A program made the translations under genes and the position numbers. From contig JBBRAE010000046.1 in assembly GCA_038207085.1 (NCBI GenBank), forward strand, positions 1 through 19,119: 19,119 bases of DNA, given 5' to 3'. This document shows positions 1,578 to 15,589 of this stretch, piece by piece; the first letter of the stretch is position 1; every line of letters starts with the position of its first letter. Source of the stretch: Armatimonadota bacterium. Its GTDB lineage: Bacteria > Armatimonadota > UBA5829 > DTLH01. The notes under the pieces are model-generated. The model saw only the letters and a list, made by a program, of their open reading frames with translations, had not been told where the DNA came from and did no database searches.

Positions 1578-1613
1578 GTATCGGGGAGCTCTCTCCCCGA
1601 TACTTTCTTCTCT
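1578..1613 (+). terminator. Rho-independent terminator. Stem gtatcggggag / ctccccgatac (11 bp, 1578-1588 / 1593-1603), loop ctct (1589-1592), then tttcttctct (1604-1613). Lies between convergent genes.
   Basis: Perfect 11-bp inverted repeat followed by a T-rich tract on the + strand. Sits directly after the DUF4139 stop and abuts the stop (1612-1614) of the minus-strand AAA gene. Confidence 0.7.
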
Positions 1614-3171
1614 ACGGAGCGTCGTTTTCGGAGACAGGGGTCCCCGAAATAACATTGAAGATATCCAGGCCCTCGGGCGGGATGCTGCTCGCCATTCGGC
1701 AGCGTCGGACGGCCCAGCGGCGAAGCGCGTTGATCTTCTCGCGCACCGTCATCGAAAGCGGGACCGATGCCCCAGCGCAGGCGGCGAGGTCGTCCTGGGT
1801 GAGATCACCCCCATTCCCAAACGCGGCGTACAGGCCGTCGATCACCACCTGCTCGATCTCCGCGCCGCTGAAACCGACCGTCATCGCCGCAAGCGCGTCA
1901 AGATCAAACGAGCCCGGCTCGCGCCTGCGCTTCTTCAGGTGAATCTCGAATATCTCGCGCCGATCATCGACGGCGGGCAGGTCTACAAAGAAAATCTCGT
2001 CAAAGCGTCCCTTTCGCACGAACTCCGGTGGGATCTGGGAGATGTCGTTTGCGGTCGCGACCACGAACACGGGTGCGGTCTTCTCCTGAAGCCAGGTGAT
2101 AAACGAGCCAAAGACCCGCGCGGTCGTTCCGGCGTCGCTGTAGGCCGAACTCTGCGCACCGGCGAATCCCTTTTCGACCTCATCGACCCAGAGGACGCAC
2201 GGCGCGACCGACTCGGCGATCGATATCGCCCGGCGCACGTTTTCTTCTGATGAGCCGACGATGCCGCTGAATATCTTGCCCGCATCGAGCTTGAGGAGCG
2301 GGAGCCTCCAGAGCGAAGCAATCGCCTTGCAGCAGAGCGACTTGCCGCAGCCCTGCACCCCCATCAGCATCACGCCTTTGGGCTGCGGCAGGCCAAACTC
2401 CCGCGCGCGGGTGGTGAAGGAATTGGTGCGCATCTCAAGCCAGCTTTTGAGCGAATCCATCCCGCCGACATCTGCGAACGCCTCGGTCGCGGGGTAGTAC
2501 TCGAGCATCCCCGACTTTCGGATGATCTGCTCTTTTTCGCTCACGATCACATCAAGATCAAGCTGCCTGCGTTCTACCAGAGACTTGGCAAAAACGTTCT
2601 CCGCCTCACCAGCTGTCAGCCCTTGCGCGGCTTTCACGATCACCTCGCGCTCGTCGGGCGCGATATCGGTCTTCACCTGGGAGTTGTCCCGAAGCGACTC
2701 GATGATTCCCTCAAGGAGCGCGTCAAGTTCGGCGACATCGGGGAGCGGGTAGTCGACGACGGTGATCTCTTTTTCAAGCTCGGAGGGAATCTTCAGCACG
2801 GGGGATAGAATCACCAGAGTCTTGCCGCTGGTCTTGAGCGAAACCGCGAGGTCCCGCAGCCGCCGGGTCACCATCTTGTCTGAGACGAACGCGTGGAGGT
2901 CTTTCAAGACAAAGATCGCGTCGCCCCGAAAGTCCATGACGTAATCGAGCGCGGCAATCGGCTCTTTGGTGGAGTCGTCACGCGTCCTCGCTTCAGAGGC
3001 AACCCCGGAGGTCGCCGTCCAAGTATACATCCGAGTCCCGCGCCCCTGCGCGATCCCTCGAATAGCCTCCTCCACCCGTTCCTCCTCAAAAGAAACGACG
3101 TAGATGATCGGGTAGCGCGCGCGGATCAGGGTTTCTATGGTCGAATTAGCCTTGCTGCTGCCGTTTGGCAA
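1612..3171 (-). CDS. ycf46: Ycf46-like AAA+ ATPase (classic AAA clade: Walker A GVQGCGKS, Walker [41 protein letters not shown]) with ~250-aa N-terminal domain
   Basis: 519-aa ORF. N-terminus [17 protein letters not shown] and C-terminal AAA module match the Ycf46 architecture known from cyanobacteria and plastids. SD-like GGAGA sits 4 nt before the ATG. Confidence 0.85.
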
Positions 3172-3496: not shown

Positions 3497-5398
3497 TTAC
3501 TTCTCAGCCTTATTCACAGCGCCGTCATGCACCGGCTCGGCTTTGGGCTTCTCGGTAGACTGCGCCTGGATCACGGGGAGGTTGGATTTCACCATGCCAG
3601 CGATCGTTTCGGCCATCTCCGGGGAGATGTTGATCTCCTTGCCGGTTACTTTCTTCACGACCTGACCGAGCATCGTGGCGAGGTCGTCGACGGTCTGGCT
3701 CGGGGTGCGGTCGCTGTCGCTTCCGAGGACGCTTTTGCCGACGCCGTCGAGGAACGCGCCGATTCCGAGGCCCTGCGAGAGCTTGGTGAGCATGTCGGCC
3801 ATCGTCTCGGGCGTGCCATAGACGGTGTAGTTGCCCTGCTGGGCGAAGTTGCCGACGGCCCCTGCAAGAGCGATCTGGATCTCTTTCTTCGCCTGAATCT
3901 CAAGCTTGGAAACCTCAAACTCGATCGCCGACTTCTCAAACTGCTGCTTGAACTCGGCGGTAGACTTGTCGACCTCCATCTGCTTGCGGGAGACCTCTAC
4001 GCGCTCAGCCTCAACCAGCACAGGAACGAACTGGATCGCCTTCTCGCCTTCAGCTAGTCTAGTCTTAGCCTGAGAATCGGCCTCCGCCATTGTAAGCGTG
4101 GCTTTTGCACGGTTTTCGGCGGCGCGGAGATCGCCTTCGGCTTCCTTCTGCTTCTGGTAAGCGAACGAGTCGGCTTCCCTCTGTTTCCGAACAAGCGCCT
4201 GCTCGGCCTCGTTCTGAGCGCCTATCAGCTTCTGCCTGGCTTCTCGCTCTGCTCCGGAGACGACTTCGACCGTCTTCACGTCCTGGTTCGCCTGCTCCCT
4301 TGCGGCCTCGGCCTCAAGCCGTGCCTGCTCAGCCGCGGCGCGCTCCGCTTCCTTCTGAGCGATGGCGATCTGCTGGTCGCGAGTCGCAACCTCAACCGCC
4401 CGAACCTTGTCTACCTCAGTAGTCTGAATCGACTGCTCGCGGGCGATATCGGCCTGCTTCACCGACTGATCTGCGACGATCTGCGCCTGCTGGGTCTGCC
4501 GTTCCTGCTCGATGCGGTAGACATCGGCCTCGCGCAGCTTTTCGCTCTGAACGCGCGCCACCTGCATGTGCTGCTCGGCCTCGGCAAACGCCTGGTCCTG
4601 CTGCATTGTAAGCACGCTCTTGCGGGTCGAGACGTTCTTCAGCGTAGTCGCCTGCTCAGCTGTTCTCTCAAGTTCGTTTCGGGCGACCAGAGCAGCAGTC
4701 GTAATCTCGGTGATCTTGCGCTTGCCCTGGGCGTCAAATACGTTGTTGTCGTTCAGGTGCGACGGGTCGGTCTGGTCGAGCCTTGAGATCGTCACGGTTT
4801 CAAGTATAAGACCGTTTGGCTCGATTTCCTTTGCGACTTGCTCCTGGACCGAGCTTGCGAAGCTCTCGCGATCGCTGTGCAGCTCGGCAAGCTCATGCTT
4901 TGCCGCAACCGAACGAAGCGCGGAGGTCAGTTTTTCACCGACCTTGTTGTCGATCGCGTCCTCGGTGCCGGACTGGTCGCCAAACGACCTCGCCGCGTTC
5001 AGCACCTGCTCCGGTGTCGCCCCTACCCTCATATAGAACTCTGAGTGAACATCCGCGCGCAAGTAGTCCCGAGTGATAAGCGCATCGGGCCCTTCACGGA
5101 CACATGTGAGCTTGATCACTCTAAGCGATACCCGAGTCATCCTGTGCAAAACCGGCCAGACGACGATACCGCCGTCGATTATCACCTTGCTGCCGCCCGC
5201 ACCTGTGCGGACGAGCGCCTCTTCAGCCGACGCCTTCTGGTAAAGCGTCGTGATGATCAAGAAGATCATTCCAATCGCGGTCGTGATTGCGCCGATTATC
5301 AAGAATACGAACTGTCCGACTGTGCTCATGTCCGGGAAGAACCACGGACCGATCACCATCGCCAGTCCAAGCAGAGTCATTAATGCAAACCCCATCAT
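3497..5398 (-). CDS. Flotillin/SPFH (band 7) family protein, YqiK/FloT-like: N-terminal membrane anchor, SPFH domain, long Glu/Ala/Gln-rich coiled coil
   Basis: MMGFALMTLLGLAMVIGPWFF TM segment, followed by ...YQKASAEEALVRTGAGGSKVIIDGGIVVWPV... (SPFH start), then an extended EA-rich heptad region. Start placed at the ATGATG (5398/5395) after GAAAGGAG. The ORF-track start GTG 5494 adds 32 hydrophilic residues and is judged unlikely. Confidence 0.85.
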   Translation of the reverse strand: MMGFALMTLLGLAMVIGPWFFPDMSTVGQFVFLIIGAITTAIGMIFLIITTLYQKASAEEALVRTGAGGSKVIIDGGIVVWPVLHRMTRVSLRVIKLTCVREGPDALITRDYLRADVHSEFYMRVGATPEQVLNAARSFGDQSGTEDAIDNKVGEKLTSALRSVAAKHELAELHSDRESFASSVQEQVAKEIEPNGLILETVTISRLDQTDPSHLNDNNVFDAQGKRKITEITTAALVARNELERTAEQATTLKNVSTRKSVLTMQQDQAFAEAEQHMQVARVQSEKLREADVYRIEQERQTQQAQIVADQSVKQADIAREQSIQTTEVDKVRAVEVATRDQQIAIAQKEAERAAAEQARLEAEAAREQANQDVKTVEVVSGAEREARQKLIGAQNEAEQALVRKQREADSFAYQKQKEAEGDLRAAENRAKATLTMAEADSQAKTRLAEGEKAIQFVPVLVEAERVEVSRKQMEVDKSTAEFKQQFEKSAIEFEVSKLEIQAKKEIQIALAGAVGNFAQQGNYTVYGTPETMADMLTKLSQGLGIGAFLDGVGKSVLGSDSDRTPSQTVDDLATMLGQVVKKVTGKEINISPEMAETIAGMVKSNLPVIQAQSTEKPKAEPVHDGAVNKAEK

Positions 5399-5505
5399 TT
5401 GCTCCTTTCGAAAATGGCGGTTTGTGCCATTTTGATTCCCGTTGTGGTAAAGACGGCAGTAGCGCGGGCTTTGCGCTGCGAGAATCTTTATCACAACTCC
5501 TTTCG

Positions 5506-6135
5506 TTATAACAGATCACTTTTCCGGACTACAAAGCGCTTCTCGTCTTCGTCGTAATCGATCACCACCACGTCCGTACCCGGTGCGATCACACTTTCCC
5601 CCTCCTGAACTTTCGCCTGGACCCGATGCACGGTGCCGTACTGGTCCCGGACGTTGATGGTGCCGGACTTCTCGGTGGCTTGATACACGGTATGACCGAG
5701 AAGTCCAACGAGTTGGCGGCGCTCGACGCCGAAAGTCTCATCCCTTGGGGTGATCCGCCCGACGATCTCAGCCACGGCGCGAGTCACAGTGAAACTCGCG
5801 ACAAGCGTAATGAGTATCGATGGCAGGATAAGCGCGCTCGGATGGTCGAGAATCCCCATAACACGGTTGATGAGCATACCAATCGAGCCCCATGTAAGCA
5901 TCAGCAAGCCGACGAGCATGGATATAGAAACATCTCCCGCGCCTACAAAGGCAAGAAACCTGCTCATCCCGTGTCCGTCGCCGAGGTCAGCGTCTGAGTC
6001 GGCCCCGTCACCGAGGTCGTCCCCCGAGCTCTCCTGCATCCCACCGACGACGCTTATCAGAATCCAAAGCACCGATACAGCCAGCGGAAGCGTGTATATC
6101 AGGTTCCACCAGTTGAGAAGGTAGTGGTAAGACAT
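5506..6135 (-). CDS. NfeD/YqiJ-like flotillin-associated membrane protein (paralog 1). Asp/Gly-rich acidic insert, C-terminal OB-fold-like beta domain.
   Basis: Layout is TM helix, then DDLGDGADSDADLGDGHG insert, then 2-3 TM helices, then C-terminal GTVHRVQAKVQEGESVIAPGTDVVVIDYDEDEKRFVVRKSDL typical of short NfeD/YqiJ proteins encoded beside flotillins. SD GAGGGGA before the ATG. 9-nt gap to the upstream paralog. Confidence 0.75.
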   Translation of the reverse strand: MSYHYLLNWWNLIYTLPLAVSVLWILISVVGGMQESSGDDLGDGADSDADLGDGHGMSRFLAFVGAGDVSISMLVGLLMLTWGSIGMLINRVMGILDHPSALILPSILITLVASFTVTRAVAEIVGRITPRDETFGVERRQLVGLLGHTVYQATEKSGTINVRDQYGTVHRVQAKVQEGESVIAPGTDVVVIDYDEDEKRFVVRKSDLL

Positions 6136-6144
6136 GTTATCCCC

Positions 6145-6906
6145 TCAAATATCGCTTTTTCGGACGATAAAGCGCTTGTCTTCGTCGTCGTAGTCGACGA
6201 CAATCACCTCAGTCCCGGCGGCGATGCTCTCATTGGCGTCCTCGCTCTTGGCCTGGACGCGGTGGACAGTGCCGGAATGGTCTTTGATATCGATCGTCCC
6301 GGTGGTCTCGCTTACTGTGAAGACGCTTCGTCCAAGCGAGCCGACGAGTTCCAGTAGTGAAACCCCAAAGGTCTCGTCCCGGGGCATAATCCGTCCGACG
6401 ATCTCCGCAATCGCCCGCGTCACCGTCGCACTTACGACAAACGCGACAGCCATCGAAGGCCAGATGAAAAGCGACGGATAGTGAAGCACCCCGAAGAGCT
6501 TGTTGGCAAGCAGACCAAACGACCCCCAGCACAGCAGGAACATTGCGACCATAAGGCTGAGCGGTGCTTCGTCAAGGCCGAGGACCATCATAAACTTGCT
6601 CGCGCCGCTCGACGACTCACCATCGTGATGTTGCGCGTGCCCATCGTGTGAGGCATGTGAGGCGTGCGCATGCGCGCCGTCGTGTGCTACTGAAGTGTGG
6701 GCATGGGCGTGCAATTGGGCGTGGATGCGATCCCCCGCGTGGTGCAGAGCGTGGCTCACGGAGTGTCCCCCACCATGTCCGTGCGCGTGACCCTGCCCGT
6801 GTCCGTGGCCCCCGGCGAGCGCTGTAGAGACAATCCACAGCACCGAGAGCGCAAGCGGAAGCGCGTAGATCAGGTTCCACCATTGCAGCAAATCAGTTAC
6901 CGACAT
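6145..6906 (-). CDS. NfeD/YqiJ-like flotillin-associated membrane protein (paralog 2) with ~70-aa histidine-rich insert
   Basis: N- and C-termini are paralogous to 5506..6135 (MSVTDLLQWWNLIYALPLALSVLW... / ...GTVHRVQAKSEDANESIAAGTEVIVVDYDDEDKRFIVRKSDI). Insert is GHGHGQGHAHGHGGGHSVSHALHHAGDRIHAQLHAHAHTSVAHDGAHAHASHASHDGHAQHHDGESS. Strong SD GGGGAGGA 8 nt before the ATG. Confidence 0.8.
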   Translation of the reverse strand: MSVTDLLQWWNLIYALPLALSVLWIVSTALAGGHGHGQGHAHGHGGGHSVSHALHHAGDRIHAQLHAHAHTSVAHDGAHAHASHASHDGHAQHHDGESSSGASKFMMVLGLDEAPLSLMVAMFLLCWGSFGLLANKLFGVLHYPSLFIWPSMAVAFVVSATVTRAIAEIVGRIMPRDETFGVSLLELVGSLGRSVFTVSETTGTIDIKDHSGTVHRVQAKSEDANESIAAGTEVIVVDYDDEDKRFIVRKSDI

Positions 6907-6950: not shown

Positions 6951-7766
6951 TTACTGCTCGGTTGTCTCACCGGACGACTTGTCTCCGGCGTTTCCCTGCT
7001 GAACCTGCTGCTCTTGCGCGACTTCTTCGGTCGATTCGGCCACGTGGCCGTTTCCGATCTCCGCGGAGAGCTTTTTGAACCGTTTTTCTGTGTCAGATAG
7101 CCCCATCTCGGCCTTTAGCTCGGACAGCGCTTGGTTTGCCCTGGCCTGACGCGCCGCCTGACGCACCTGATGAAGCTTTTGCTCGTCGCCGAGCTGCGCG
7201 ATGTCACCAATCGCCTGACTCTCGGCGTAGGCATGGTCTGCGCGCTCCTCAAGTCGCTCAAGCGCCTTCATGTCCTCGTCTAGCGACGGCGACATGGCGA
7301 ACTTCTGCACCTGTGCGCGCATTGTCGCGAGCTGATAGCGCATCTGAGCGTTTCGAGCGCGATCGGCAGCCTCTTTCAGCTCGTCCTGAAACATCTCGAT
7401 CTGACCTTTGGCCTCGGCGGCGTGCAGCCTTGCAGCCTCAAGCTGGGTTTTCAGGTCGTCGACACGGGCCTGACAGGACTCCATCTGAAGCAAAAGGTTC
7501 CCCGCAAGCTCATCTTCGTTCTGGGTGACAGCCGCGCGGGCGTCGCCGTCAAGCTGCGCGAGTTTCTTCTCCTCCGCCTCAAGCATCCGCTCGATCCTGT
7601 ACTGGTTCGCGATCACCGGGACCGCTGACGTTTTGAGATCGGCGAGCTTCTGCTTCATGCTTTCGATCACATAAGGACCGATGACGGCGGGATTCTCGTA
7701 CTTGATCAGGCCGAAACTGATAGTGGACAGTATTATTCTTTTGACCCTTTGGAGAATATCTCCCAT
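6951..7766 (-). CDS. pspA: PspA/IM30 (Vipp1/LiaH) family membrane-stress protein, bacterial ESCRT-III superfamily
   Basis: 271 aa. N-terminal amphipathic helix MGDILQRVKRIILSTISFGL, then ...IKYENPAVIGPYVIESMKQKLADLKTSAV... aligning to the PspA EDPxKMLxQ region. Continuous coiled coil and an acidic/Gln-rich tail. SD GGGGGTG 6 nt before the ATG. Confidence 0.85.
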   Translation of the reverse strand: MGDILQRVKRIILSTISFGLIKYENPAVIGPYVIESMKQKLADLKTSAVPVIANQYRIERMLEAEEKKLAQLDGDARAAVTQNEDELAGNLLLQMESCQARVDDLKTQLEAARLHAAEAKGQIEMFQDELKEAADRARNAQMRYQLATMRAQVQKFAMSPSLDEDMKALERLEERADHAYAESQAIGDIAQLGDEQKLHQVRQAARQARANQALSELKAEMGLSDTEKRFKKLSAEIGNGHVAESTEEVAQEQQVQQGNAGDKSSGETTEQ

Positions 7767-7888: not shown

Positions 7889-8680
7889 TTAGTACGTTGG
7901 GTTGGCCATCCGAGCGTTGTACTTGGAGACGTACCAGGGATAGCGGTCGGCGTAAGCGGGGAGTTCGCGTCCTTGATAGCGGGTAGGCGCTGAGGGGGCG
8001 ACGTGCCCATCACAGTAGAGATAGTTGTTCCGCCGGTCGTGCCAGGGAAACTCGGCGTTGGGCATATGTTCGTGCTTCGACCAGCCCCGCACGCATGTCC
8101 AGTCGCCGCATCTGTAGATGTAGTCTCCGGGATAGCTGTAGAAGCTGTCTGGGGTAGCCCCTTCATACAGCAAAATAGTCTTCTTTGGAATCTCGATGAG
8201 CCCCTCCGGGCAGCCAAACAAGTGCCAGGACCCCGAAAGATTTCTCAAGGTAATATTATAGGACTTGTCGTGAAACCCGCCGCCTCTGATATAGGAGTTC
8301 ATGGAATAAGTGCGGGCGGCGTATCTTCCGTCCCACCGATGCAGATCCGGGCAGCACCAGACACTCCCCACCCCACCTTTGCTTCTGACGTATCTCACGA
8401 GCCCCCCGTTGCCGGACTGGTTCCATGCGTTGTAATCGCCGAGCTTACCACCGGGCGAAGGATAAACCCTGTTCCAATCGTCCAAGTACATCTGAAACGC
8501 TATGCCGAGCTGCTTTAGATTCGAAGCACACTTCACAAGATTCGCTTGACGCTTCGAGCTCACGATCACAGGAAAGAGTATCGCGGCAAGAAGCGCAATA
8601 ATACCAATAACCAAAAGCAGCTCGGCAAGCGTAAAGCCTCTGCAACAACATTTCAGACGTACCAAAGCCTCACCCCACAC
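7889..8680 (-). CDS. DUF1559 (H-X9-DG) protein with type IV prepilin-like N-terminal cleavage/methylation domain
   Basis: Prepilin motif RG|FTLAELLLVIGIIALLAAILFPV. C-terminal ...NYLYCDGHV... fits the DUF1559 H-X9-DG family typical of Planctomycetota, Verrucomicrobiota and Armatimonadota. A short leader implies an internal start (GTG 8680 or TTG 8665, after a GGGGTGAGG SD-like stretch) rather than ATG 8737. Confidence 0.7.
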   Translation of the reverse strand: MWGEALVRLKCCCRGFTLAELLLVIGIIALLAAILFPVIVSSKRQANLVKCASNLKQLGIAFQMYLDDWNRVYPSPGGKLGDYNAWNQSGNGGLVRYVRSKGGVGSVWCCPDLHRWDGRYAARTYSMNSYIRGGGFHDKSYNITLRNLSGSWHLFGCPEGLIEIPKKTILLYEGATPDSFYSYPGDYIYRCGDWTCVRGWSKHEHMPNAEFPWHDRRNNYLYCDGHVAPSAPTRYQGRELPAYADRYPWYVSKYNARMANPTY

Positions 8681-8816
8681 ACCGGTGGCGCATAGCGCCA
8701 GCCCTTTCGCAGCCTTTGGCTGCTGTCGGACTGTCATTTTCTGACATCACTGTATTGAGTTTAGCTTCACTATGCCTGCTCGTCAAGCCCTGGCTGTGAA
8801 CAAAGGCAAGTTTCTG

Positions 8817-9203
8817 TTACCGCCTTGGGCCGTACTGGTACCCCGGAAGCGGACCAAACCTCGGCTGGTTGTACTGATAGGACTGCCTCGGATAGTAGTA
8901 TCCTCTATAGTAAGGATGGTTAGGATAATACGGTCTGTACATCGGGTATGGTTGGACGATGACTACATTCGGATAGCCTCCGTAGTAGCGATTTCCATAG
9001 CCCCCACGGCCGTAGTAACCTCGCCCATAGTAGCCGTGACCGTATCCGGATCCGACGCCAATCGACACGCCTCCCCCTCCACCGTGGCCCCAGCTTCCGG
9101 CTCCAATTGACACGCCTACATAGGCAAATGCTGTGCCTGCGATCAGAAGCGCTCCCATCGCAGCGGCGACTAATATTATAAGAAGAACTCTTCTTGTGTT
9201 CAT
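8817..9203 (-). CDS. Secreted Gly/Tyr-rich low-complexity protein (YGHGYYGRGYYGRGGYGNRYYGGY...PYYRGYYYP)
   Basis: Start moved to ATG 9203 (MNTRRVLLIILVAAAMGALLIAGTAFA signal/anchor). The rest is G/Y/R/P-rich. The ORF-track start at 9296 adds a non-signal extension. Confidence 0.7.
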   Translation of the reverse strand: MNTRRVLLIILVAAAMGALLIAGTAFAYVGVSIGAGSWGHGGGGGVSIGVGSGYGHGYYGRGYYGRGGYGNRYYGGYPNVVIVQPYPMYRPYYPNHPYYRGYYYPRQSYQYNQPRFGPLPGYQYGPRR

Positions 9204-9346
9204 TTTCAGGCCTTCACCAGTGCGGCTGAGAGACTCAGCCGGCGATTTGGAGAGGTGAACTCTCCGTAATATGTTTTTACCCGGATATTTCCACATCCTT
9301 GCATGCTCGCATGTTTAGGCATCGTGGCTATATGTGAAAAACATGC

Positions 9347-10115: not shown

Positions 10116-10139
10116 TAGGCACTTATCAACATGTGCCTA
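10116..10139 (+). promoter_or_regulatory. Operator-like inverted repeat TAGGCAC-ttatcaacat-GTGCCTA between the -10 and the abiEi start
   Basis: 7-bp perfect arms (10116-10122 / 10133-10139). AbiEi antitoxins are established autorepressors that bind inverted repeats in their own promoter. Confidence 0.4.
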
Positions 10140-10162
10140 CGTTTTGTACACGGGGAAATCCA

Positions 10163-10765
10163 GTGAAATCTGAAAGAACAGAGCAGGCGCTTGAGATAAT
10201 CAAAACAAAGGGACTTGTGCGCACCAGGGACTTGACAGCCTTGGGCATCCGCAGAGATTATCTGGCCACACTTCTTCGAGAAGGTCTAATCGAGCGTGTC
10301 AGTCGAGGCATATACATTCTGCCTGGACTGGATACGACCGAGCATCACAGCCTCGCAGAAGCATCAAAGAGAGTTTCTAAAGGAATAGTGTGCCTTCTCT
10401 CTGCGCTCAGATTCCACGGACTGACAACACAGAATCCTTCCAGAGTCTGGATGGCAATAGATCGAAAGGCATGGCTACCGGAACTTGACACACCACTCGT
10501 CCAGCTCGTGCGATTTTCAGGAAAAGCTCTGGAATACGGAATCGAAGAACACACAATCGAAGGTGTGAACGTTCGTGTCTATAACCCAGCTAAAACCGTC
10601 GCCGACTGCTTCAAATACCGCAACAAGATAGGCCAGGACGTAGCTCTTGAAGCGCTCCGGGACTGCTGGAAACAGCGTAGAGCCACGATGGATCACCTCT
10701 GGGAAGCAGCAGAGGCTTGCCGAGTGGCGAGGATAATGCGTCCGTACTTGGAGTCGCTTGTATGA
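10163..10765 (+). CDS. abiEi: AbiEi-family antitoxin / transcriptional regulator (type IV TA)
   Basis: ...ALEIIKTKGLVRTRDLTALGIRRDYLATLLREGLIERVSRGIYIL... matches the AbiEi winged-helix N-domain. Start chosen at GTG 10163 (GGGGA SD 7 nt upstream). The in-frame ATG 10133 lacks an SD and overlaps the operator. The stop overlaps the abiEii start (ATGA). Confidence 0.8.
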   Translation: MKSERTEQALEIIKTKGLVRTRDLTALGIRRDYLATLLREGLIERVSRGIYILPGLDTTEHHSLAEASKRVSKGIVCLLSALRFHGLTTQNPSRVWMAIDRKAWLPELDTPLVQLVRFSGKALEYGIEEHTIEGVNVRVYNPAKTVADCFKYRNKIGQDVALEALRDCWKQRRATMDHLWEAAEACRVARIMRPYLESLV

Positions 10766-11676
10766 GCGACAAAGAGATAAAGAATCTGCCCGGCTCCGTA
10801 CGCCAGCGCCTTCTGAACATCGCCAAGGATAAGGGTGAGGACTTTCAGCTATTCCTGGATCGTTACGCCGCCGAAAGATTCCTTTACCGCCTGAGCAAGT
10901 CCGAATACAGCAGTGGCTTCGCACTGAAGGGTGCAACACTATTTGCTATTTGGTCGGAAGCCCCCTACAGATCAACAAGAGATATTGATCTCCTCGTGTG
11001 GGGCAACAACTCCGTGAGCCAACTGGAGGAGCTGTTTCGCCATGTCTGCAATATGGACGTGGAAGACGATGGTCTGGTATTCGACAGAAACACTCTCAAA
11101 GCTACGGAGATAAACGAGGACGAGGAATATACGGGAGTGCGGGTCAATCTAATCACCCTTCTCGGTGTCGCAAAGGCAAACGTTCAGATTGATGTCGGTT
11201 TTGGCGACGTAATCACTCCCAAAGCCGTGGAAGTCCAGTGCCCGAGCATTCTCGGATTCCCGTCAGCCGTGATGCTGGCTTATCCTATGGAAACAGTCAT
11301 AGCCGAAAAGGTCCAGGCTATGGTGATGCTTGGCATGGTCAACAGCAGGCTGAAGGACTTTTCGGATATTCATCACCTTGCCAGCAAGTTTGAGTTTCAA
11401 GGCTCGACGCTTTGCGAGGCGCTCAGAACTACTTTTGCACGAAGGCAGACGGAACTGCCAAAGGACATTCCTACAGCGCTCACAGAGCGTTATTATGGAA
11501 GTGGCGAACGAGAAGCGCAGTGGAAAGCATTCAAGAAGAAGACCGCCGTGAAGTCTCCGCTGACTTTTGCGGAAACGTGCCTGTCCCTGCAGCAGTTTCT
11601 GATGCCCCCGTTGACGGCCGTCGGTGCTGACGAGCCTTTCACCAAGACTTGGCGGCCAAGCGGCCCATGTCAGTAA
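10762..11676 (+). CDS. abiEii: AbiEii/AbiGii-family nucleotidyltransferase toxin (type IV TA)
   Basis: MSDKEIKNLPGSVRQRLLNIAKDKGEDFQLFLDRYAAERFLYRLS... and ...YRSTRDIDLL... (NTase motif). ATG 10762-10764 overlaps the abiEi TGA 10763-10765. The ORF-track start 10717 is an upstream extension. Confidence 0.85.
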   Translation: MSDKEIKNLPGSVRQRLLNIAKDKGEDFQLFLDRYAAERFLYRLSKSEYSSGFALKGATLFAIWSEAPYRSTRDIDLLVWGNNSVSQLEELFRHVCNMDVEDDGLVFDRNTLKATEINEDEEYTGVRVNLITLLGVAKANVQIDVGFGDVITPKAVEVQCPSILGFPSAVMLAYPMETVIAEKVQAMVMLGMVNSRLKDFSDIHHLASKFEFQGSTLCEALRTTFARRQTELPKDIPTALTERYYGSGEREAQWKAFKKKTAVKSPLTFAETCLSLQQFLMPPLTAVGADEPFTKTWRPSGPCQ

Positions 11677-12854: not shown

Positions 12855-13445
12855 CTATTTGGCGGGCTTTTCTGCCGGCTTCTCGGTTGCAACGATGCGG
12901 ACGGTTTTCATTACGTCGCCCATCTCGATCTTCTTGACTACGTCGAGCCCCTCGGTCACTCGACCGAACACGGCGTACTGCATGTCAAGAAACGGAGTGG
13001 CGTCCAGTGTTACATAGAACTGGCTTGTCGCACTGTTGGGATCGTTGGTCCTGGCCATCGCAACCACCCCTGCGGCGTCATGCTTCAGCTTGGGGCTCAC
13101 CTCAAGCGGGATCGTCTTCTCGGAACCCCCTGTGCCGTCGCCTCTCGGGTCCCCACCCTGGATGACAAACCCAGGCACAACCCTGTGAAACTTCAGGCCA
13201 TCGTAAAACTTCTTGTTGGCAAGCTCGATGAAGTTCTTGCTCGTAATAGGGGCGTCCTTTTCGTAAAGGCTGATCTTGAACGTTCCCTTGTTTGTCTCGA
13301 CTACAGCGATATGCTCAACCGCTAGTTTCTCTTGCACTGGTTTCTTCTCCTTAGCCGGTTTGGCTTTCGGCTTAGCCGCTGTGGCTGCGGACGCTGCCAC
13401 GGCAAAAGCCATTGCGAAAACAACACACTTACTGACCAATTTCAT
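12855..13445 (-). CDS. Secreted cyclophilin-type peptidyl-prolyl cis-trans isomerase
   Basis: Signal peptide [23 protein letters not shown]. Cyclophilin signature [37 protein letters not shown] 7 nt before the ATG. Confidence 0.9.
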
Positions 13446-13482
13446 ATTTCTACCTCGTGTGATAAAGCGCTGATATAATCAA

Positions 13483-14121
13483 CTACCACTTTAGCTTCTT
13501 GATCTGCTCAAGGTCTTTTGCAGTCGGCTTGGATACTGACACAGTCTTCATAACGTCGCCGGGCATAATGGCGTCGACGACTTTCTGACCTGCAAACACC
13601 CGGCCAAATGAGGCGTAACTGCCGGTCCAGTCCGGATACGGATACTTGTTGATGAAGAACTGGCTCGTAGCGCTGTTGGGATCGTTGGTCCTCGCCATTC
13701 CGACCATATATACCTGATCAAACCCAAGGCCTGACTTGATCTCAAGCGGGATCGTCTTCTCCGAACCACCGGTGCCGTCACCCTTGGGGTCGCCGCCCTG
13801 GATCACAATCTCCTCAACTCGGTGGAACTTCAGTCCGTTGTAGAACTTTCGGTTGGCGAGCTGAATGAAGTTCTTGGTGGTCGTAGGCACGTCCTTCTCA
13901 AAGAGGACAAACTTGATATCGCCCCACTTGGTCGAAACTGTCACTATGCTGCCGGGCTCAAAGCTTGCCGACGGAACCGCTTTCGGCTTCTGCGCCTGTT
14001 CCTGCTTCTGGTCCTTGGCGTGCGATTCTTCGCCCTCGTCAGTGCTGGTCTGCCGGTTAAGCGCCATTCCGACGCCTACGAGCGCCGCAAGTACGAAAAA
14101 GAATAGGAGCTTTGTTTTCAT
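13483..14121 (-). CDS. Secreted or membrane-anchored cyclophilin-type PPIase (paralog) with ~50-aa acidic/Gln-rich N-terminal linker
   Basis: [29 protein letters not shown]. Start moved to ATG 14121 (MKTKLLFFFVLAALVGVGMAL). The ORF-track start 14172 runs into the upstream hairpin. Confidence 0.85.
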   Translation of the reverse strand: MKTKLLFFFVLAALVGVGMALNRQTSTDEGEESHAKDQKQEQAQKPKAVPSASFEPGSIVTVSTKWGDIKFVLFEKDVPTTTKNFIQLANRKFYNGLKFHRVEEIVIQGGDPKGDGTGGSEKTIPLEIKSGLGFDQVYMVGMARTNDPNSATSQFFINKYPYPDWTGSYASFGRVFAGQKVVDAIMPGDVMKTVSVSKPTAKDLEQIKKLKW

Positions 14122-14142
14122 ATCTCCCCCGATGTAATAAGA

Positions 14143-14172
14143 ATGTGGGGCAAGCCTGGGCAAGCCCCACAT
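14143..14172 (-). terminator. Hairpin atgtggggc-N12-gccccacat between the thioredoxin-like gene and cyclophilin 2; possible attenuator or partial terminator
   Basis: 9-bp perfect stem. On the minus strand it is followed by TCTTATTACAT, which is only moderately U-rich. Confidence 0.3.
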
Positions 14173-14220: not shown

Positions 14221-15318
14221 TCAGTCAGCTTCTTCGCAAGAACCGAATGTAAAGGCATATATGGCGAAGGAATCCGAGTTGGAAGAGAGCTTCAACTCGT
14301 GGGTTCCAAACTCGCGGTTCTCGACGATCTTGTACATCCGAGGCTGGTCTACGGTTATGCGACTCTGCCCCTCGGCCAGGAACACATCCGGGCCTGCGTC
14401 GGCGGGGTCGATCGGGTGGCCGTCCTGAGTTACGATCACCTCATACTCGCCGCCTTCGGGACGCATCACGGCGTTTACGTCGAGCGCGTGGTAGCGGATG
14501 GCGATATAGTCCTCGGGTTGCACGGTCTTGTCCGCGTGTCTCAGGCACTCGGCATCGTTGTAGAATAGCCCGCTTGCGTAGATTTTGCCGTCGATGTGGC
14601 CACCGGGGTCGGTGTAGTCGACGATCTCGTCGTCGCGATAGCCCTCCGGGCTGCCCATGTTGCCTCGCCGATAGCCAACGTAAAGTTCAGGGGTCATGGG
14701 GTAGCAGACCGCACCCGGTTTGTTGGCCCCTGTCGCGGGAGTCATAGGCTTCGGCAGTTTGACTGTGGGGTTGATCTCCCGAAGCGCCTGCTGGATCATC
14801 GCCTCAGTTTCTCCGTAAGCGCCCTCTCCGGCGTGATCATAGATAATCTTGCCGTCTGGCCCGACCAGGAACTTGTGCGGCCAGTAGCGGTTGGCATAGA
14901 CGTTCCAGTTTTCATAGTCCGGGTCTAACAATACAGGATAATCTATAGCAAACATATCCACAGCCTCCTGTACAACTTCGTGCTTTTTCGCGAAGCCGAA
15001 CTCAGGTGTGTGGATGCCTACGACCACCAGACCCTTGTCTTTGTAACGGTCGTGCCACTCTCGGACGTAGGGAAGCGTCCTTATGCAGTTGACGCATGTA
15101 TAGTCCCAGAAGTCTATCAGATAGACAACACCTGTCCTCGCATCAAGGGACTTCCCGCCGGTGTTCATCCAACTCTCAGGCCCGCCTATCAACGGAGGCA
15201 TGTTCTTCAGCTTGCGCTGGGACTCTGCCGCTTTATCTGCCGAGCCACCGCGTCCGATCATACCTACTAAAAGCGGCGATGCCAGCATCGCTATAGTGGA
15301 GATTGTGATTATTGGCAT
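14221..15318 (-). CDS. TlpA/ResA-like thioredoxin-fold thiol-disulfide oxidoreductase (CVNC active site) with ~230-aa C-terminal extension of unknown function; membrane-anchored
   Basis: Start at ATG 15318 (MPIITISTIAMLASPLLVGMIG) with GAGGTG SD 6 nt upstream. ...VYLIDFWDYTCVNCIRTLPYVREWHDRYKDKGLVVVGIHTPEF... is a redoxin CxxC motif. Confidence 0.8.
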   Translation of the reverse strand: MPIITISTIAMLASPLLVGMIGRGGSADKAAESQRKLKNMPPLIGGPESWMNTGGKSLDARTGVVYLIDFWDYTCVNCIRTLPYVREWHDRYKDKGLVVVGIHTPEFGFAKKHEVVQEAVDMFAIDYPVLLDPDYENWNVYANRYWPHKFLVGPDGKIIYDHAGEGAYGETEAMIQQALREINPTVKLPKPMTPATGANKPGAVCYPMTPELYVGYRRGNMGSPEGYRDDEIVDYTDPGGHIDGKIYASGLFYNDAECLRHADKTVQPEDYIAIRYHALDVNAVMRPEGGEYEVIVTQDGHPIDPADAGPDVFLAEGQSRITVDQPRMYKIVENREFGTHELKLSSNSDSFAIYAFTFGSCEEAD

Positions 15319-15347
15319 AGCGGTCACCTCAGTTCTTGTTGTCATAC

Positions 15348-15367
15348 CCATTGGGTAGAGCCAATGG
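15348..15367. promoter_or_regulatory. Perfect palindrome CCATTGG-gtagag-CCAATGG, 30-50 nt upstream of the thioredoxin-like gene start; same half-sites as the RRM-gene promoter palindrome
   Basis: Read directly. The second copy is at 9350-9369 (CCATTGG-N7-CCAATG). Confidence 0.35.
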
Positions 15368-15589
15368 TATTTTATCCAAGGAGACGCAACTAGCAAGTCC
15401 AAGAGCCGAAAGCAGGGGTATAGCCGGGGTCGGTCAGAGTTGGGTTTCGCCGACAATTGTCATGCCGCAAATCAGCAAGCAGAAACTAGTAGGTGAGGTA
15501 GTTGGCAGGCGCACAATGAGATGCTCCGCGTTCCACCACGGCCCACAGGGGACTTGCACCCATTAGGCGCAGGAACTTCTGACGTACAC

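Follow-up and report, generated by a model that had tools for sequence, protein, structure and literature searches.

What does a bacterium gain from two neighboring copies of a flotillin partner, one with a loop crowded with histidines and the other with a short loop of aspartates and glycines at the same place? The question is posed by two adjacent genes at positions 5,506 to 6,906 of a 19,119-nucleotide (nt) contig, JBBRAE010000046.1 (assembly GCA_038207085.1), the whole of which we refer to as the window. They lie in a PspA / YqiJ / YqiJ / flotillin / AAA+ membrane-stress cluster from an uncultured bacterium whose nearest named relatives are metagenome-assembled genomes (MAGs) of Armatimonadota. 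Both encode divergent members of the YqiJ/YuaF (NfeD2-like) branch of flotillin partners, and the stretch that sets them apart is the loop between the first and second transmembrane (TM) helices, which we call loop 1. A loop 1 rich in His, Asp, Gly and Ala and poor in Lys and Arg is the norm in this family, and the pair in the window occupies the two ends of a family-wide range. The reading we have come to favor, with somewhat better than even confidence, is of tandem YqiJ-type flotillin partners in which loop 1 probably lies in the cytoplasm and may bind cations.

The original prediction, made from the letters of the DNA, had described tandem YqiJ/NfeD-type paralogs with a shared motif and shared domains, next to PspA and flotillin, and that description stands. 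The two proteins align over their full length with 43% identity (BLASTP, E 9e-70). Common to both are an N-terminal LLxWWNLIYxLPLAxSVLWI motif and a C-terminal beta domain, and the single large gap in their alignment, of 45 residues, falls wholly between TM1 and TM2, which places the two loops at the same position, as had been claimed. Family models are less forthcoming. The YqiJ_N model (PF21001, gathering score 23) accepts paralog 1 at 26.2 bits, paralog 2 alone scoring below it at 17.9; YqiJ_OB (PF07290) gives 15.4 and 15.1 bits for the two paralogs against a cut-off of 25.4; and NfeD (PF01957) gives paralog 1 12.6 bits against a cut-off of 29.1 and has no match to paralog 2 in the Pfam search. 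No NCBIfam model matches either protein, and PDB chains yielded no matches in sequence searches with either paralog 2 or the flotillin. YuaF-type NfeD2 proteins are very divergent in sequence. Since the Pfam NfeD and YqiJ_OB matches are below threshold, we used fold comparison, and because the gathering score of PF01957 is not reached, membership of the NfeD superfamily rests on fold and context. Here the evidence is more generous. In hhalign, a profile of the clade matches Escherichia coli YqiJ over the stretch that begins with TM2 and takes in the OB domain (probability 95.5%, E 1.6e-8). The AlphaFold2 (AF2) model of paralog 1, with a predicted local distance difference test (pLDDT) score of 76.8, has a helix at residues 3–33, disorder from 34 to about 100, a short helix at 101–108, a helical hairpin at 116–139/144–173 and a confident beta barrel; paralog 2, at pLDDT 83.6, has the same architecture of three TM helices and a barrel. 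Fold comparison matches the barrels to NfeD OB domains, Foldseek also returns YbbJ of the QmcA–YbbJ cryo-EM complex (E 9e-5), and the overall plan, in which a hydrophobic N-terminal region precedes a five-stranded OB-like barrel anchored to the membrane, is that of the NfeD superfamily. Within TM1, W9, W10, N11 and P17 are nearly invariant (alignment A1). It is on the Pfam and profile alignments, the AF2 architecture and the Foldseek matches together that we place both paralogs in the YqiJ/YuaF branch.

The histidine-rich loop itself is a little less extravagant than it had looked. Some 30 histidines in an insert of about 70 residues had been announced; we count 21 in 63 residues and 24 in the whole protein. 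They are arranged in alternating His-X units, with at least three such units between the TM helices in HGHGQGHAHGHGGGH and in HAHAHT...HAHASHASH. A period-2 (HX)n pattern is dominant (z score 3.2), and the helical signal is weak (z 1.6). The AF2 model gives the loop a pLDDT below 55, with one weak helix at 51–67, and it puts the loop between the helices at 3–33 and 116–139 as a disordered segment, so that, as had been supposed, the loop lies outside any TM segment. Loop 1 of paralog 2 is short and acidic, MQESSGDDLGDGADSDADLGDGHGMS, with a pLDDT below 50 for residues 36–54. A regular-expression search of both paralogs for the calcium motif DxDxDG (D-x-[DN]-x-[DN]-G) found no match. The His-rich and the acidic stretch are length and composition variants of one TM1–TM2 loop, not insertions into an ancestor that lacked a loop.

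How unusual, then, are these loops? An exhaustive HMMER search with the Asp/Gly paralog returned 1,116 representatives at E ≤ 1e-3, and loop 1 was delimited through a common alignment in 228 sequences, the best 150 of those 1,116 plus open reading frames (ORFs) from the loci we fetched. In these 228 homologs loop 1 has a median length of 58 residues (range 21–133) and a composition of 16.3% Asp, 14.4% His, 14.0% Ala and 13.8% Gly, with Lys and Arg together at 1.8%. By simple thresholds, mixed loops with both His and acidic residues are the largest group (120, many of them with HDxD-type repeats), ahead of His-dominant loops (39), loops of other kinds (37), acid-dominant loops with few His (27) and basic loops with His and Arg/Lys (5). 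Acidic residues recur at spacings of 2, 4, 6 and 8, as in DxDxD (z about +30), and are avoided at adjacent positions (z about −27); in the mixed loops His is enriched at spacings of 4 and 8. Even E. coli YqiJ has a mild, His/Asp-flavored version. The loop thus varies greatly in length and sequence and is constrained in composition: chelating His, Asp or Glu alternate with small or aliphatic residues, and Lys and Arg are nearly absent. These statistics are why we regard the loops in the window as the extremes of a family range, and they dispose of the idea that the loops are special inserts. The five basic loops (P0093, P0101, P0147, P0153 and P0177) form a subgroup of their own, rich in His, Gly and Arg/Lys (up to 17 Lys and Arg), with the opposite charge at the same position. 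A literature search produced nothing that links NfeD, YqiJ or DUF1449 with histidine-rich loops or metals, in keeping with the earlier remark that such a feature had not been described for YqiJ/YuaF; the family trait seems undescribed rather than unusual.

The original prediction had itself allowed that the His run might be a slippage artifact, to be judged by comparing orthologs. Slippage or misassembly as the source of the run is refuted as far as sequence data can show: Tandem Repeats Finder detects just a weak repeat, 6 nt × 4.8, at 6779–6807; the orthologs have the loop; and an independent Logan assembly, of run SRR19962012, yields the same 253-residue protein without a single difference, followed by a called gene for 209 residues at the position of paralog 2. 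A word-indexed search gave 31 homologs, several of them named Armatimonadota MAG proteins, and every full-length close relative keeps a loop of 53–83 residues with 11–26 His and 0–3 Lys/Arg. In one 49%-identical ortholog, on a MAG contig (locus L009, 94–880), a frameshift just past the His-rich loop breaks the gene into two overlapping ORFs; an error of sequencing or assembly is the probable cause, though a real disruption could also account for it. That frameshift is what speaks for the view that the run is an artifact of sequencing or assembly, or that paralog 2 is a decaying pseudogene. Set against the independent assembly, two intact ORFs with Shine-Dalgarno-like sequences, a loop present in all orthologs and a second paralog that folds as confidently as it does in AF2, it leaves that view with practically no chance of being right.

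Close relatives also reveal order within the disorder. Within the closest clade the central part of the loop is alignable, with H66 in at least 90% of sequences, and His recurs at spacings of 3, 4, 7 and 8. In most members the most amphipathic 18-mer (calculated at 100 degrees), such as DIGHAVHHVGHTIEHAIH, falls at a homologous position, with z of 2–3.8 against shuffled sequences. These patterns suggest that the loop of this clade may hold a helix with one hydrophobic and one all-His face.

Why two copies? In the roughly 70 related loci compared, drawn from genomes and metagenomes, YqiJ-like genes occur singly save in the window and in two others, L008 and L032. The nearest relative of the window, L030, has a PspA (2e-120), an AAA+ gene (4e-236) and one YqiJ, 50% identical and His-rich, and since L030 is syntenic with the window, it is the Asp/Gly paralog that we count as the extra gene. 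Neighbor-joining trees on about 215 core columns make the two window paralogs sisters with 53–59% bootstrap. Synteny with L030 and this weak grouping both support a duplication specific to the window, and the likely history is that the gene was duplicated within this lineage and that the second copy diverged faster.

A different event took place in the other two loci. L032 and L008, the latter a chromosome of 8.2 Mb assembled from a metagenome, share one gene order: PspA, the Asp/Gly-rich YqiJ copy, an SPFH-only gene that is truncated, the His-rich YqiJ copy and a full flotillin. The truncated gene (4089–4724 in L008, 3094–3726 in L032) encodes about 210 residues, a TM hairpin and a Band_7 domain, without coiled coil or flotillin tail. 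Here the whole YqiJ–flotillin module was duplicated and one flotillin copy was later shortened. The four YqiJ proteins of L008 and L032 form a clade at 100% bootstrap with both window proteins outside it, and within that clade the His copies pair at 100%, as do the Asp/Gly copies. From this topology it follows that their His versus Asp/Gly split is independent of the one in the window, is older than the divergence of L008 and L032 and has been kept in both. Between the two loci the Asp/Gly loops are 69% identical, the His loops 56% and the core about 75%. Recurrence of the His and Asp/Gly pair argues that the chemistry of the loop matters, with the caution that two occurrences are too few for statistics.

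On which side of the membrane does this chemistry operate? The original prediction had left the matter open, and the evidence points to the cytoplasm. The AF2 models have three TM helices, so loop 1 falls on the same side as the OB domain, and the topology we propose has TM1 with its N terminus outside, loop 1 in the cytoplasm, a TM2–TM3 hairpin and the OB barrel inside. In the 228 homologs Lys and Arg are densest immediately behind TM3, where they number 14.4 per 100 residues; the short loop between TM2 and TM3 has 7.9. The OB domain of Staphylococcus aureus NfeD is cytoplasmic and binds the flotillin coiled coil (PMC11222466), the QmcA–YbbJ cage of 26 heterodimers is described as protruding into the cytoplasm (PMC13086221, citing Tan et al. 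2024), and YqiK and QmcA are oriented opposite to the periplasmic HflKC (PMC10434171). We are fairly confident of the cytoplasmic placement.

Acidic loops are, all the same, of the kind that get translocated, and this lends some color to the opposite arrangement, in which the loops would be periplasmic and would bind or buffer periplasmic metals, like the His/Asp-rich loop of ZnuA. Loop 1 is strongly acidic, with the scarcity of Lys and Arg that is typical of translocated segments, and in part of the family the short N-terminal tail has some Lys/Arg. To accept a periplasmic loop, one would have to set aside the count of TM helices, the cytoplasmic flotillin-binding role of the OB domain in characterized NfeD proteins, the cluster of Lys and Arg after TM3 and the cytoplasmic location of both PspA and the SPFH/flotillin domain, and we consider it very unlikely.

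The mechanism we favor can be put together from these parts. The OB barrel would dock on the flotillin coiled coil at the cytoplasmic side, a step by homology that draws on operon linkage and on the S. aureus and E. coli data. Loop 1 would then be a cytoplasmic neighbor of the OB domain, either beneath the flotillin assembly or within it, and may act there as a flexible, multidentate segment that binds cations, whether divalent metals, protons or both. In the window the pair would divide imidazole and carboxylate chemistries between two proteins, where most single-copy relatives mix both in one loop. It is an even bet whether both copies co-assemble on one flotillin. For cation binding itself, what leads us to it is the disorder of the loop, the alternation of chelating with small residues, the depletion of Lys and Arg, a chemistry kept among orthologs and the repeated partition of His and carboxylate after duplication. 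ZIP and CDF transporters bind metal through (HX)n loops on their cytoplasmic side, and by analogy with these loops we hold cation binding by loop 1 tentatively, at a little short of an even chance. Of the metal-binding loops in the original prediction, the general idea remains plausible through that same (HX)n analogy. Its assignment of Ni/Zn-type sites to the His loop and Ca/Mg-type sites to the acidic one is analogy as well; the DxDxDG motif is missing, and no metal-related gene lies in the 19 kilobases (kb) of the window.

The most serious competitor is a spacer constrained in composition alone: disordered, soluble and free of Lys and Arg, it would for example keep TM1 away from the TM2–TM3 hairpin or be repelled by the anionic membrane, its His, Asp and Gly would come from repeat expansion and contraction with mutational drift, and the His versus Asp difference between the paralogs would have no specific meaning. 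A loop that ranges from 21 to 133 residues, that cannot be aligned family-wide, that AF2 leaves disordered and that carries internal repeats such as (DHDLDHDV)n, suggestive of slippage or duplication, is much what a spacer would look like, and the DNA of the window loop has its own weak repeat. The arrangement of residues is harder to reconcile with it. Acidic residues alternate at z of about +30, and neighboring acidic or His residues are avoided, both beyond what composition alone would produce; loop chemistry is kept between the L008 and L032 orthologs at 56–69% identity; the His and Asp/Gly split arose twice; and the His-striped helix of the closest clade is conserved in position, H66 included. 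We therefore think the spacer unlikely, while taking it more seriously than any other alternative. The same helix is the starting point for reading the loop as a proton sensor, in which a His-striped amphipathic segment at the cytoplasmic surface of the membrane would change its charge and membrane association once a leaky membrane had let the nearby cytoplasm turn acid, and would so signal to flotillin and PspA. Histidine, with a pKa of about 6–7, is suited to such a task; the all-His polar face, the 3–4 residue spacing of His and the z of 2–3.8 in most clade members fit it, as does the weak AF2 helix in paralog 1. PspA systems, moreover, respond to damage to the membrane and the proton-motive force, and pspA-ydjGHI of Bacillus subtilis to alkaline shock (PMC8581546). 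Most loops of the family, however, are dominated by Asp or HDxD, and carboxylates do not titrate near neutral pH; the His loop in the window is mainly period-2 (HX)n with little helical signal; and the Asp/Gly paralog could not work in this way. We rate a dedicated pH sensor as quite improbable.

Several observations weigh against cation-binding partners as we have drawn them, and they deserve to be stated together. Metal or proton binding by members of the family is a conjecture by analogy. The variability of the loop in length and sequence fits weak constraint equally well. Five basic loops among 228 mean that acidity is not obligatory. An acidic loop nearly without Lys/Arg is odd on the cytoplasmic side under the positive-inside rule, and our topology could be wrong. 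The 19-kb window holds no gene related to metals or metal homeostasis. As for the duplication, the sister grouping of the window paralogs is poorly supported by bootstrap, and the residues exclusive to both of them number just one. The helix at 51–67 of paralog 1, finally, is a tentative feature of the model, in a loop that AF2 predicts with low confidence.

Why should any of this matter? NfeD/YqiJ proteins are near-universal operon partners of bacterial flotillins, and their recognized role is confined to helping flotillin oligomerize. In the YqiJ branch, the patterned loop is a definite feature through which to test what such proteins may be sensing or binding at the membrane, and a His-rich and Asp/Gly-rich pair arising independently in two lineages suggests selection on loop chemistry rather than mere filler. 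If the loops bind cations or protons, the flotillin/PspA membrane-stress machinery would be linked to ion leakage; if they do not, they make an instructive case of constraint on composition only. A bolder proposal, which we regard as a long shot, is that His/Asp-alternating loops are lesion sensors at the cytoplasmic face, with divalent cations, protons or both flowing in through a breach, binding the many loops clustered beneath a flotillin assembly and switching that assembly to recruit or release PspA. PspA is a bacterial homolog of ESCRT-III, and were the proposal true it would provide a bacterial counterpart of the calcium-triggered ESCRT-III wound repair of eukaryotes, in which a pair of paralogs, one with His and the other with carboxylates in its loop, would respond to more kinds of ion.

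The genes around the pair (Table 1) are those expected of such machinery. The five cluster genes all share the minus strand, and from PspA through paralog 1, paralog 2 and flotillin to the AAA+ gene the gaps are 44, 9, about 11–110 and 325 nt; this co-directional content is that of the PspA / flotillin / YqiJ / AAA+ operon type. The PspA homolog scores 74.9 bits with TIGR02977 and the flotillin-like protein 53.4 bits with NF058507 (FloT), both under the cut-offs of those models. The spread in the third gap stems from the flotillin gene, for which the probable start is the Met pair at 5398/5395 rather than the GTG at 5494. Translation from the GTG puts 32 extra residues in front of the hydrophobic hairpin; homologs begin at the Met pair, and the Logan gene call has flotillin starting 110 nt past the paralog-2 stop, giving an intergenic gap of about 110 nt. 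A YqiJ-like gene is found directly 5' of flotillin in the window and in every related contig long enough to show the downstream gene, and PspA is upstream in the window, L001/L002/L005, L008, L030 and L032. The window order of PspA, YqiJ, flotillin and AAA+ recurs in L030, where the AAA+ gene (phmmer 4e-236) is again 3' of flotillin, and the ATPase probably belongs to the same system as flotillin. Its N-terminal 260 residues have no Pfam match. A CesT/Tir-like chaperone gene paired with PspA is not evident, the upstream gene matching N_methyl and DUF1559, though no profile–profile search for CesT/Tir was made; abbreviated operon forms without this gene figure in the operon descriptions of PMC11237479.

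Farther out, the window encodes an AbiEi/AbiEii pair, two cyclophilins, a thioredoxin-like protein, a PEP-CTERM protein and a LuxR-type response regulator. A 159-residue ORF at 8817–9296 (minus strand), with no Pfam match, has a single hydrophobic segment in its N-terminal part and, after it, a low-complexity tail that is extremely rich in Gly, Tyr, Arg and Pro (GYGHGYYGRGYYGRGGYGNRYYGGYP...).

Table 1. Features of the YqiJ pair, its cluster and the neighboring genes, in window coordinates.
Feature	Position	Strand	Details
His-rich part of loop 1, paralog 1 (residues 34–96)	6619..6807	−	21 His, 4 Asp, 1 Arg in 63 residues
Acidic loop 1, paralog 2 (residues 33–58), MQESSGDDLGDGADSDADLGDGHGMS	5962..6039	−	7 D, 1 E, 6 G, 1 H in 26
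TM1 of paralog 1 (residues 3–33), conserved WWNLIY..P motif	6808..6900	−	AF2 helix, pLDDT 88–94
C-terminal NfeD-type OB-like beta barrel of paralog 1 (residues 177–250)	6157..6378	−	
PspA/IM30 homolog, 271 aa, first gene of cluster	6951..7766	−	PF04012, 88.8 bits, E 5e-25
YqiJ-type (NfeD2-like) paralog 1, 253 aa, His-rich loop 1	6145..6906	−	
YqiJ-type paralog 2, 209 aa, short Asp/Gly-rich loop 1	5506..6135	−	
Flotillin-like SPFH protein	3497..5494	−	Band_7 PF01145, 72.7 bits
AAA+ ATPase, 519 aa, downstream of flotillin	1612..3171	−	Pfam AAA PF00004, 92.8 bits, and AAA_lid_3
Prepilin-type N-terminal methylation motif (N_methyl) protein, directly upstream of PspA	7889–8737	−	weak DUF1559 match
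AbiEi antitoxin / AbiEii nucleotidyltransferase toxin pair (type IV toxin–antitoxin or abortive-infection module)	10133–11676	+	overlapping ORFs
Two adjacent cyclophilin-type peptidyl-prolyl isomerase genes	12855–14172	−	196 and 229 aa
Thioredoxin-like/redoxin protein, after the cyclophilin genes	14221–15456		

Much of this has precedents, and it is against them that the locus is best judged. The transporters that inspired the metal analogy (ZIP, CDF/ZnT and RcnA) appear to share with the window proteins a disordered loop of variable length between TM helices, made of alternating His-X or Asp-X units and probably cytoplasmic; unlike them, the YqiJ-type host is no transporter and has neither a conserved intramembrane metal site nor a metal-related gene context. 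With B. subtilis YuaF (NfeD2)–FloT, S. aureus NfeD–FloA and the E. coli YbbJ–QmcA cage (PDB 8z5g) the likeness is in the expected role, that of a cytoplasmic OB partner of the SPFH coiled coil. Phmmer against PDB chains detects no sequence similarity to these proteins, and the papers examined on them mention neither a His/Asp low-complexity loop nor a tandem pair. The operon type was described by comparative genomics: in the account of these operons by Ravi et al. 2024 (PMC11237479) PspA, a Band-7 flotillin with a TM segment, a YqiJ-YuaF-like 3TM protein and an AAA+ ATPase occur together, as they do in the window. There the YqiJ gene is duplicated and the gene next to PspA is prepilin/DUF1559-like rather than CesT/Tir, and loop composition is not discussed in that account of the operons. 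What seems new, therefore, is the duplicated His / Asp-Gly arrangement and a patterned loop that had apparently gone undescribed, the protein family and the operon type being already known. E. coli YqiJ (DUF1449; YqiJ_N and YqiJ_OB) has the same three TM helices and C-terminal OB barrel, the same His/Asp flavor in loop 1 and a gene directly upstream of the flotillin gene yqiK; at about 21% identity, the proteins of the window differ from it in coming as two copies, in loops that are far more extreme and in a cluster that adds PspA and an AAA+ ATPase.

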